Shown here in pieces: positions 1 through 64,000 of a DNA stretch of 64,000 nt (the stretch's first letter is position 1; each line of letters starts with the position of its first letter). This stretch comes from Lytechinus pictus. Taxonomy: Eukaryota. Position numbers: made by a program. The stretch covers positions 18,414,001 through 18,478,000 of the forward strand of contig NC_087261.1 of the NCBI RefSeq assembly GCF_037042905.1, read 5' to 3'.

Positions 1-1272
1 TATATATCAGCTTTGCAACGGAACAGACACTCTGCTGATATGCCCATCGCCAAAATTTCCTGACGATGTCGCCTCTACCGTGAGGAAAAGAGCACCTGAC
101 GTAATCACGTTTGTCGCAAATCTGACATTTGACTTCGATGGTTACATAATCAATGGCGGCTTGATAGAATACTACCCAGACCCAATTTATGAAAGCTTCG
201 GTGGACCAAACAGACTCTATGAAAGCAGTAACGGACGGCTCGAAATAACAGTAATTATATTCCCGTTTGCCTCACTCGTTCCGCTATCTTGTTTTATCTC
301 CTGGATAAGAATAAATGCATACAAAGAATAATTATCAAAAACCTTGTCCTTTTACCAGTTTTACATTTCAGTTTTCGATTTAAATGCATATGAGTACTTT
401 GTTAATTGTCATGAGTGAATGGTCTGTACCAGTGATACCTCAATAATTGAACCGAAAAACTAAAGAATAATTGAATTAAAAAGCATCTTTAACGTTCAGT
501 TTTAATTATTTATTCATTATATTTATCAAATTATTCATGCATTTATTTCTTATAACTTTTATTTGAAAAAAAAAATCATCTTTAATATGAAATGATGCTC
601 ATGACTGACAACTGAGCGAATAGTTCTCTCTCTGAAATTTCGAAACCCGTTTATTGTTTTGTACATCATCCTTTCCATGACATGCCTTGATAAGACCATG
701 GACTACTCTGAGTAGTAGGTCCATAATGAGATTAACTTCTTCTTCTTCTTATGTTGGTTTGAGTGGCGATTAGTCATATTTGACTATTGTCGCCATTGAC
801 TATATTAATACAAAATCTCACTTCTCACATAATGATATTATTACCAATATGATGTATACATATATGAAATATTTTTCTTGTGTATCCTTTTAATATGAAA
901 AAGGATAATTATGGTATGTACAAAAGTTTGCCGTAACTCTTGTCAAAATGGCATATAAACAAATCTTCACCAAAAACAAACCGCTATCTTCAGCTTAGTT
1001 CCAACTAGTTGCGCTTGCCCTGCCCTTTCAAAGATGCAATCATACCGGTCAGCACGGTACGTTGTGCCGATTTTTCGGCATTAAATGCCTAGGTCACCCA
1101 TGCATAGGCGAGGGGGCGCTAGTGTACCTGTGCTTATAGATGGGTTAAACATTAAAATAATTTGTTTCTTTTTTTTAAACAACAACAACAACAACAAGGC
1201 GAAAACACTTGTGGGCCTTGTTAGTTATATGTGCAGAACATATCATATTGTATATATTATATTATACATTAG

Positions 1273-1314
<42 letters not shown>

Positions 1315-61300: not shown

Positions 61301-64000
61301 ATATACTGGAAGCGATTTTTTTTTTCAATAACCATGTCGTTGACGTCCCTTGGAAGATAATGTTGATTAGTATCGTTTGTTGTTGTTTGTTTTATTTTGT
61401 TTCAACCACCAGATGACCATAAGAATTTGATTCTTTCCATTGTTTCAACGGAGACCACAGTTTACTTCATAAGCACGGATTTAATCATGTTTGACTGCAG
61501 CCATCATAAATCGTAAGTAACAAATTTCACTGGTTATTTTAACACAGCGCTTTATGATATTGTATGAATGTAATAATTGCACATTTTATTTTCTATGTAT
61601 AATGTTGCTTTCCCTCTATGTGATAAATTTTGCCATGCCCCATTTGCCTAGAGAAATTTAAGGAGCATCTTGGAAATACGAACTTATACGTTCTGGCACC
61701 TATCGTGTATTTCCTTAAAGAATCTGACACTTCGTTACGACTAAGAACTTGCAAGTAATTCACTTAATATGCAGTAAAGAAAAGGATGTTACTCTGGCCT
61801 TGTGCTTTACATTTCTCTGAGTTCATTCTTGCTTATACTCATACGTAATAATAACACATTACACATGTTACATATTATGTTTGATTTATTAAAAGAAAAT
61901 TGTAATCGCGATTATATTTTAAGGAAGTTGTGCAGGTGAGGTTGTCAAGCAAGACACATTCACCATTGACTGTACAGGTAATCATGGTCCATAAGGTATT
62001 TTTTCGGAGGAATATTCAGCTGTTTAAGTCGTTCCCATATGACTCAACTTATCTAGAGACAAGTCTCTAGTATATACTTATACACACGTCTATTGATCAA
62101 ATTTGTTTTCATTGTTGACTTAAAATATAAACTGAAATGAGTTTCAGATCTCTCTAATGCCAAAGAAAATGTAACACGGTGCGGACTTTAACTTCAATTA
62201 ATGAACGAGTAAATGCTTCAGATCATAAATTGGTATCAGGCCCCTCAATGTTTTTCCAACGTTTATTGATGGTAATTATGTGAGACTCTTGCCAGTCCAA
62301 GCTTAGAAGAATATCTTAACTATTGAACGTAGACTTATTATAATATCCAGGCTTGATCATATCTAGCATAATGCTTCTAATGCTTAAACAGACACATCGG
62401 ACACCCACACGCACACCCACCCAGATCCTCACTATATCTATTAGTATTTCATTATTGCAATTACAATGGCTATCCTAATCACGTTATGATTGCTTTCGAC
62501 TAAAACTTGTCTTATCTGAAATTTATCGGCCAGTCATTGGTATTATTATTAAGTTTAAGGTATAATAATATTAAACCAAAGTTTATCTCTGAACATGTGT
62601 ATGAATTTGGGAATTTTCTAGATCTGAATTGGCGCATCCAGGGGCCTAAGGCCCCCCCCCCCCCCCTCCGTTGGTGGAGCAAAAAAAGGGCGGAGAAAGA
62701 AAAAAAAGGGAAAGAGAGGAGGAAAAAAAGGAAAAGAAAAATAAGAGGAAGAAGACGAGTAAATGAAATAAGTTGACGGAAAGAATTAGAAAATATATAT
62801 TTTTTTAATCTTTCATGTAACTATACAATTTTCTCTCGCGCCTCGCGCTAGCATTGCATTTCTTGCTCAGTAGGCTGATATGGGGCTTTTTTAAATCAAG
62901 TTTTGAAGTCAGTATACACAATATATTTCAGTACAAAAATCGAACTTTCTTTTGTTTGATTTACAAATTAATTTTTTTTTAAGTGCTCGGTAAAATGTCC
63001 ATTTTATGGTCAGAATTTAAACATTTTCAACTTGCGCTGGAATTATTTTATTTGCCTAAATACTTACTGTCTTTATGCATTCCATAAATTTCGCAAAATA
63101 TCCCTTTTCAGGTATGATTGTAAAAACGTAGGCCTATCAGCAAGTGTTAAGCGCTCGCATAGTTCTATATTAATTCTATAACAAAACTACTTGAAATCGA
63201 CTTTTCATGAAAGTTATCAAAAATTCTGGCTCGCGATTTGCACTCGCATTAATTTTTAAAATATATTAACCAATGCATCCTATTCATAATTACAAAAATG
63301 CTTGAAATGTCCAGTTTCAAGCTTTAATATCAACAATTGTCACGCTCTCATTTGGCTTATTAGATTAATCACAATATCTTTTCATCAATCCATAATAACT
63401 CAATTATCCCCTTTTTCAGAATGGAATATCGACAAGTTTCATATCACGCCTAGGAAGAGGAATAGGAAGATGGTCATCATTTCCATATAATGACAAAATG
63501 CCTGTAGCATGTCCCAGTCCTAGGTCAAAATAATAATTTAAAAATATTACCTCGCGCTTCGCGTTCGCATACTTCATTAAGTGCATTACACATCCGCTCC
63601 ATAATTTTCCTACTCAGTGCTTAAAAAAATATTAAATTGACCCTTTTTCTGATTGGAACATCAAATACTTACAGCTCGCGCTCGCATTTTTAATTTTCAT
63701 GATAAAACTGAATTATTCAGAATGCCTAGAATCTAGGTCTAAATTTAAAATACGCGCAGGCATGTTTATTAAGATTCGTAGCTTGTAATTTATTCAAAAC
63801 GTGCTTAAATGATCCACTTTCAGATCAGAATATCATTTTTTCTGCTGGGGCTTCGCACTCGCATTATTAATGCAGGTAGATAACCATCCTTTTCATGATA
63901 TAAAAACATGAATAAAGTGTCCTTCTTTTTTTTTTCTGAAATCTCGGTATTTTTTTCGCTTGCACTTCGTGCTCGCATCAATTAGTTACATTCCCTTCAT

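Follow-up and report, generated by a model that had tools for sequence, protein, structure and literature searches.

Two neighbouring plexin-like genes, here called gene 1 and gene 2, occupy a 64,000-nucleotide stretch of the sea urchin Lytechinus pictus genome (NCBI RefSeq assembly GCF_037042905.1, contig NC_087261.1, positions 18,414,001–18,478,000 of the forward strand; hereafter the window). Our comparisons indicate, with a probability of about three in four, that they are adjacent, separate members of a sea-urchin-specific plexin subfamily, which is a branch of an echinoderm-only expansion and belongs neither to plexin-A nor to canonical plexin-B, including two arginine-deficient tail types, ectodomain conversion and a variable Sema head. 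The head-to-tail arrangement first proposed for the pair is borne out: both genes lie on the plus strand, and 13,475 bp separate the gene 1 stop codon, which ends at 16289, from the gene 2 ATG at 29765. Only the 3′ part of gene 1 (open at the window start, TAA at 16287–16289) and the 5′ part of gene 2 (open at the window end) fall within the window. The stretch 6685–64000 contains no N, so the sequence is uninterrupted from the end of gene 1 through the spacer into the start of gene 2.

Searches and Pfam were run exon by exon; for whole-protein work gene 1 was represented by the database proteins P0001 and P0023, and gene 2 by its exon 1 alone. P0001 (L. pictus 'plexin-A4-like isoform X3', 1845 residues) maps onto the window with 24 matches on the plus strand. 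Gene 1 is identical to P0001 at 746 of 759 residues (98%) and to P0023 at 767 of 784, and, judged by these values, is an allele or orthologue of the gene encoding P0001. A search with gene 2 exon 1 returned 22 proteins at E ≤ 1e-3 from 4376 candidates: 16 sea-urchin plexin-like proteins (Lytechinus pictus, Strongylocentrotus purpuratus and Diadema), three look-alikes and three weak matches (26–27%). None exceeds 69% identity, and the first match of another kind is a fish plexin-B2 at 26%. Relative to P0001, exon 1 is 68–69% identical to the N-terminus and the later exons are 61–86% identical. Gene 2 keeps the cysteines and other residues that are invariant in the sea-urchin family and is, by these comparisons, a further, distinct paralogue.

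The pair had also been taken for a lineage-specific, fast-evolving plexin cluster, and this holds: it belongs to a sea-urchin-only subfamily inside an echinoderm-only clade, is 24–33% identical to canonical plexins and, for the Sema exon of gene 2, sits among long branches in the Sema tree. The value of 24–33% was obtained in every region when P0001 and P0002 were compared with hedgehog plexin-A2, turtle and zebrafish plexin-B1 and fish plexin-B2. Protein searches recover several paralogues of the family per species, and the plexin architecture is complete in its members. A whole-length search with P0001 yielded 77 proteins at E ≤ 1e-10 (7996 scored), of which the top 14 are echinoid or look-alikes at no less than 927 bits, and the next is turtle plexin-B1 at 601 bits. 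A family N-terminal profile (818 positions) run against 1.84 billion representatives gave 1487 matches at E ≤ 1e-3. In local scoring, sea-urchin members with the N-terminal part score about 590–1366 bits (twelve calibrated full-length rows, 940–1366), two starfish proteins and a starfish Met-LP kinase score 550–572, and canonical plexins score 150–364.

The tail tree (41 rows, 574 columns), in which gene 1 is represented by P0001, contains an echinoderm-only clade of 29 rows with a Shimodaira–Hasegawa-like approximate likelihood-ratio (SH-aLRT) support of 100 and a stem of 0.58. The A-class rows split from all others with support 100, and P0001 falls in the echinoderm clade, outside the A class. 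The echinoderm clade, arthropod PlexB and chordate B form a three-way fork, and the tree does not nest the echinoderm clade inside the B class. Within it, two echinoid tail types, alpha and beta, form one clade (support 99), with an alpha stem of 1.36, the longest in the tree, and a beta stem of 0.36. The next relatives of this clade are S. purpuratus P0289, then one representative, and then a sea-cucumber protein. P0289 ('plexin-A4 isoform X2'), the nearest named relative outside alpha and beta, has KS in place of the RR pair, keeps the third arginine, and is encoded on the same contig as the beta protein P0008.

The tandem, lineage-specific expansion of plexins in echinoderms is already in print and is largely not new. 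Junqueira Alves et al. (2019) describe eleven plexins in Acanthaster planci (A1–A3 and a distinct group, B1–B8) and four Met-LP kinases, credit the S. purpuratus plexin expansion to Whittaker et al. (2006), and report that a starfish plexin-B gene adjoins a Met-LP gene (PMC6374515). A. planci Plexin-B1 to -B8 resemble the sea-urchin family in their clade (tail tree), in an insert in the first PSI domain (PSI1) and in a two-residue insert in the GTPase-activating protein (GAP) region; they are also clustered, with three members on one 641-kb scaffold. They differ in that the sea-urchin branch is 33–34% identical to the starfish members, including P0096 (A. planci 'plexin-B-like'), and carries alpha and beta tails of its own. 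P0096 itself is related to plexin-like proteins of starfish and brittle stars and to Met-LP kinases. The echinoderm Met-LP kinases carry the same kind of ectodomain on a different signalling tail, whereas both tails described here are plexin GAP-like and not kinases. Among the 120 matches listed for P0096, 16 from Patiria miniata join a plexin ectodomain to a kinase Pfam domain (Met-LP type), all on one contig, a cluster far larger than the four Met-LPs reported for A. planci (PMC6374515).

Catalytic arginines and the two tail types

Canonical plexin-A and plexin-B share with the sea-urchin family the Sema-PSI-IPT ectodomain, the single membrane span and the split RasGAP domain with an inserted Rho-GTPase-binding domain. 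By comparison, the sea-urchin family shows 24–33% identity to them, incomplete catalytic arginines, a Sema loop of the form CGGCxxxC and many tandem paralogues per species. The canonical consensus reads L(L/M)LRRTE(S/T)V..EK.L.NW around the arginine pair and LPLRFW around the third arginine. In an alignment of 52 rows (18 canonical and 34 from the echinoderm clade, including 14 of the sea-urchin family), the RR pair and the third arginine are present in 18/18 canonical rows. All three arginines are found in 4 of the 34 echinoderm-clade rows (three starfish 'plexin-B-like' proteins and one 'plexin-A2-like' protein) and in 0 of the 14 sea-urchin rows.

The two tail types lack different arginines. 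Beta tails keep the RR pair and have histidine for the third arginine in 9/9 rows (LPLHYW or LPQHYW); when beta protein P0027 is aligned with the solved plexin-A1 and plexin-B1 tails, RR falls on RR and His on Arg. Alpha tails have lost the RR pair in 5/5 rows (TE or TK, TN, IN, TK), and two of the five also have asparagine for the third arginine. Gene 1 is of the alpha type and reads ..FTE|TESVTEK without its cassette exon and ..LFTK|TESVTEK with it, while LSRFW, with the third arginine, is kept. The three arginines have been reported as each indispensable and as conserved across species and plexin sub-families (PMC6597256). In another study R1407/1408A served as the dead arginine-finger control, and the second arginine was described as holding the finger in place (PMC3787391).

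The alpha tail of P0001 is 71–82% identical to that of S. purpuratus P0005, and the ectodomain is 45–83% identical. Since the alpha tail is as conserved between genera as the ectodomain, and the splice sites and frame are intact in the window, the alpha tail is not decaying. No description of natural plexins without these arginines was found in the main texts of the literature searched. The word 'arginine' is absent from the text of PMC6374515, the supplementary alignments of which lie outside that scope and may bear on the arginine claim; the same text, again apart from its supplements, mentions neither catalytic-residue loss nor concerted evolution. Relative to the known expansion, what appears new is an arginine-deficient sea-urchin plexin branch with two old tail types on ectodomains matched within species, together with a hypervariable mid-Sema segment between paralogues.

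Mosaic evolution of ectodomain, Sema head and tail

Alpha and beta proteins of one species are alike up to the membrane and unlike behind it: overall likeness is 75–98% for the stalk and 16–48% for the tail. Between alpha P0001 and beta P0002/P0003 of L. pictus, identity is 68–69% in the Sema exon, 84–88% in the stalk (residues 358–1081), 63–64% next to the membrane and 32% in the tail. In 60-residue windows the same comparison gives 83–98% at residues 300–960, 46–47% across the transmembrane segment and 16–44% in the tail. A second L. pictus pair, P0012/P0027, is 88–98% identical and then 21–55% past a break near the membrane span. The same pattern is seen in P0005 (S. purpuratus alpha) with P0006 (a beta protein that clusters with S. 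purpuratus), at 71–93% and then 20–48%, and in the Diadema pair P0017/P0013, at 75–91% and then 16–54%.

The two portions also give different trees. A stalk tree of 19 rows and 725 columns, built with the careful method, recovers species groups that each contain both alpha and beta proteins (L. pictus 100/100, Strongylocentrotus 99/99, Diadema 100/100). In approximately unbiased (AU) tests, the stalk data reject an alpha clade (log-likelihood lower by 1198, p-AU 8e-93), and the tail data reject an L. pictus clade (log-likelihood lower by 488, p-AU 1e-80). Because the alpha/beta split of the tails is older than the divergence of Diadema from the other urchins, the likeness of the ectodomains would have been renewed by gene conversion or block exchange; and because the ectodomain identities are below 100%, these are separate copies rather than shared exons. 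The pattern thus points to repeated gene conversion or exon-block exchange with a limit close to the membrane span. Partners of this kind, alike in ectodomain and unlike in tail, were seen in database proteins; the window itself shows an alpha tail only.

The Sema head follows another course. Compared with its nearest relatives, gene 2 exon 1 is 58–86% identical at residues 31–90, 30–72% at residues 91–240 (30035–30484 in the window) and 56–96% at residues 241–330, and P0001 compared with P0002 shows the same dip in mid-Sema. A Sema-exon tree (24 rows, 359 columns) places gene 2 in a 7-row clade with support 100/100, the named rows of which are all Lytechinus; this clade is a star of long branches, the gene 2 branch being 0.32. 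On these comparisons the middle of the Sema head is the part that varies most between paralogues.

Two motifs on which the original prediction relied are present, and both have a wider distribution than the pair. CGGCKNDC occupies residues 113–120 of gene 2 exon 1 (30101–30124), and a variable CGGCxxxC loop is found family-wide; the canonical loop, in the 10 canonical rows listed, is one residue longer and lacks the second mid-loop cysteine (for example, CGSVHQGIC). GEDGGNDG is encoded at 57443–57466 in PSI1 of gene 2, which reads CIGEDGGNDGDPYCGWC around the insert before DPYCGWC, and is a marker of the echinoderm clade, with an insert in 12/12 listed clade rows. The insert amounts to five residues relative to 9 of the 10 canonical rows listed and to three relative to a hemichordate row, and it is shorter in the starfish row P0254. 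The two-residue insert in the first GAP segment is carried by P0001, to which the gene 1 exon at 6871–6936 is identical.

Gene models and sequence context

The window is AT-rich, with short exons and long introns. Splice sites were chosen by scoring each GT/AG pair near a match against the reference protein. The introns of both genes are all GT-AG, with phases that agree with P0001, P0002 and P0003.

Gene 1 consists of 17 constitutive exons and one 26-codon cassette exon, all on the plus strand and placed by P0001 mapping except where other evidence is given. It encodes the last part of the ectodomain, the membrane span and the whole tail, in which one membrane span is followed by the split RasGAP domain with its inserted Rho-GTPase-binding domain; Pfam assigns Plexin_cytopl to four exons and Plexin_RBD to one. 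A partial exon at 1–250, in frame from base 2, encodes the last IPT region (residues 1082–1163 of P0001; 80/83 identical), and the exon at 2623–2811 encodes the juxtamembrane ectodomain (63/63 identical). The transmembrane segment, recognized by its hydrophobic span (IATVIPTVIVLLIFITIPTIILACW), and the start of the tail share the exon at 3777–4005, which is followed by cytoplasmic exons at 4399–4538 and 5029–5150. Behind the assembly gap, the exon at 6871–6936 (ELIASLLAITFVSEWNSIVFT..; 21/21 identical to P0001) bears the two-residue insert typical of the echinoderm clade. The cassette exon at 8231–8308 (VMTALVEDEIMGASESRRPLDKLFTK; 25/25 identical to P0023) ends with TK where canonical plexins have RR, and the exon at 8580–8646 (TESVTEKLISNWF..; Pfam Plexin_cytopl) lies directly 3′ of the lost pair. 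Parts of the RasGAP domain are encoded at 9162–9308 and 13953–14119 (mapping and Pfam) and the Rho-GTPase-binding domain at 9714–9867 (Plexin_RBD, 30.5 bits), with further exons at 10699–10799, 11449–11554, 11894–11976 and 12809–12919. The exon at 14681–14819 (alignment and Pfam) holds LSRFW, which retains the third catalytic arginine and is one residue shorter than the canonical LPLRFW, and exons at 15408–15548 and 16203–16289 complete the gene.

The cassette exon, which falls in the GAP domain, is present in P0023 and skipped in P0001, both L. pictus database proteins. Among close relatives it occurs in S. purpuratus P0005 and not in P0024 or P0007; as presence and absence recur in relatives, its alternative splicing looks conserved. 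P0001 and P0023 are two L. pictus alpha models on the same contig, 95% alike in the stalk and 99–100% in the tail; gene 1 is about equally near to both. The two models may reflect either a very recent duplication or two haplotypes. Immune-type tyrosine motifs in the gene 1 tail were also considered and set aside: AYYTLE and LPYYNE, the two stretches inspected by eye, mostly align with tyrosines of canonical plexins.

The single assembly gap (6547–6684), left as Ns and of estimated length, lies within the gene 1 intron between the exons at 5029–5150 and 6871–6936. Continuity and frame across it had been in question. The exon ending at 5150 supplies two bases of a codon and the exon from 6871 the third, so the two are in phase; P0001 runs continuously over the join (..GRER|ELIAS..) with no residue lost, the S. 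purpuratus relatives read alike, and neither P0001 nor P0023 has coding sequence that gene 1 lacks here.

Gene 2 is modelled as seven plus-strand exons from 29765 to 61512, all open, encoding a signal-peptide-like start, Sema, PSI1 and IPT1 (about residues 1 to 640). Exon 1 (29765–30796), identified as a long open exon and by homology search and Pfam, contains the ATG, the signal-peptide-like start and most of Sema in 344 codons, followed by gtaagt. The other exons were placed by mapping: exon 2 (54676–54888), which ends Sema after an intron of 23.9 kb; exon 3 (56871–57011); exon 4 (57380–57501), with PSI1; exon 5 (59835–59964); exon 6 (60945–61098), with TIG_plexin; and exon 7 (61413–61512), the last one found. 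Pfam scores are 24.2 bits for Sema, just above the cut-off of 23.7, 26.1 for PSI and 35.6 for TIG_plexin.

When database plexin proteins were mapped on the window, no plexin-like match was found on either strand of the spacer, on the minus strand, or beyond 61512 up to 64000. The spacer (16290–29764, 13,475 bp) holds an inverted repeat (19258–19543 with 20183–20468; 286 nt, 99% complementary, 639 nt apart) and retroelement remains at 24628–26202 on the plus strand, with an open reading frame (ORF; 24628–25614) for an endonuclease of the long interspersed nuclear element (LINE) type (Exo_endo_phos, E 1.4e-10). Further retroelement remains lie on the minus strand at 1392–1967, with an RNase H-like ORF under the Pfam cut-off (24.1 against 25.8 bits), and at 52127–52795, with an ORF that has a YIDDIF motif and no Pfam match. 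The first intron of gene 2 includes a near-perfect palindrome at 34658–38983 (perhaps about 33.8–39.7 kb) centred near 36.8 kb; it has five arm pairs of 153–558 nt that are 92–99% complementary, ORF pairs suggest a wider extent, and either a foldback element or an assembly artefact may account for it. No Rfam family matched the window at the gathering score.

Competing explanations and significance

The two genes might be halves of one plexin gene misordered by the assembly, as the parts are complementary (gene 1 from residue 1082 to the end, gene 2 from 1 to about 640) and the window contains both a gap and the palindrome. This is highly improbable: the gap lies inside a gene 1 intron and not between the genes, 6685–64000 is uninterrupted, gene 1 terminates in a stop codon, gene 2 opens with an ATG and a hydrophobic leader, and the Sema tree gives gene 2 a long branch of its own. 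Furthermore, gene 1 shares 98% identity with P0001, but gene 2 exon 1 shares only 68–69% with the N-terminus of P0001 and the later exons of gene 2 share 61–86% with it, so the misordering scenario fails and two genes stand. There is equally little room for ordinary 1:1 orthologues of conserved plexin-A or plexin-B. The database names ('plexin-A4-like', 'plexin-B1-like') and the best solved-structure match of P0001, the plexin-A4 ectodomain (355 bits), speak for orthology, but identity to plexin-A2, B1 and B2 is only 24–33% in every region, there are several paralogues per species, and in the tail tree the echinoderm-only clade splits from the A class with support 100 and forms a three-way fork with arthropod and chordate B plexins rather than nesting among them; with this the claim of a lineage-specific cluster is upheld. 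That gene 2 is a dead or truncated duplicate, leaving one working gene and a relic, is unlikely, although it deserves more weight. The best match to gene 2 exon 1, among proteins of 603–2000 residues, is 69% identical, compared with 98% for gene 1 in the same collection, and its first intron is 23.9 kb long, repeat-rich and palindromic; yet all seven exons are open, their borders are GT-AG and their phases match P0001 and P0002, and the family-invariant cysteines and other residues are present.

An immune or self/non-self recognition system, which the original prediction had entertained, seems a doubtful reading of the cluster. The expansion is lineage-specific and clustered, its Sema segment is hypervariable, and like ectodomains with unlike tails recall paired immune receptors by analogy; in addition, a protein annotated plexin-A4, which may or may not belong to this clade, is reported in starfish coelomocytes (PMC13409769). 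On the other hand, immune-type tyrosine motifs were not seen in the two gene 1 tail stretches inspected by eye, and echinoderm secreted semaphorins are reported to be expanded as well (PMC6374515), which makes an internal co-expansion of ligands and receptors the simpler reading.

Several points weigh against the reading of two separate subfamily members with arginine-deficient tails and exchanged modules that we prefer. The groups compared in the AU tests were set from the tail motif, but after the identity tables had been seen. The tail tree was built with the quick method after 11 rows had been dropped (P0282, P0108, P0130, P0321, P0026, P0241, P0330, P0117, P0298, P0005 and P0017). The parts of gene 1 and gene 2 within the window do not overlap, so they allow no direct gene-to-gene comparison. 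Among proteins of 603–2000 residues, none found exceeds 69% identity to gene 2 exon 1, which may mean that gene 2 lacks an annotation or is broken downstream. Some activity might persist by another route in an arginine triple mutant (PMC6597256). Finally, the paralogue comparisons use automatic gene models, of which P0007, P0010, P0018 and P0024 are visibly chimeric or truncated, and wrong joins within tandem clusters could produce an apparent mosaic; against this, the break is seen in four pairs from three genera, and in the window alpha-tail exons lie directly behind ectodomain exons.

Receptors of this subfamily would still bind semaphorin-type ligands with their diversified Sema heads, and their signalling would not run through canonical Rap-GTP hydrolysis. 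Output would more likely pass through the retained Rho-GTPase-binding domain, or the tails would act as non-catalytic binders or modulators of catalytic partners, a mechanism suggested by fly PlexB, which wires neurons without its catalytic site but needs its GTPase-binding motifs (PMC6597256). The sea-urchin family would resemble IQGAP-type domains in having a RasGAP fold without a working arginine finger. RasGAP-related domains of the IQGAP type bind GTPases without hydrolysis. Paired activating and inhibitory immune receptors such as KIR and SIRP are encoded by neighbouring genes with like ectodomains and differing tails; the likeness to them lies in matched ectodomains with unlike tails and is an analogy only. 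By this analogy we tentatively propose, as an idea that is itself unlikely to be right in full, paired plexin receptors in which conversion matches the ectodomains, two ancient tails are catalytically crippled (alpha without the finger pair, beta without the stabilising arginine) and the Sema head is diversified, so that a recognition system might read diversified ligands through two non-GAP outputs, like activating/inhibitory pairs.

Plexins are usually regarded as few and conserved, with signalling that relies on the Rap-GAP active site. The echinoderm clade has complete arginines in 4 of 34 sampled members, and its sea-urchin members in 0 of 14, yet the tails are conserved between genera, which offers a natural test of GAP-independent plexin signalling. 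In addition, matched ectodomains that give way abruptly to two old tail types would illustrate clearly how concerted evolution can be confined to certain domains within a tandem receptor cluster.

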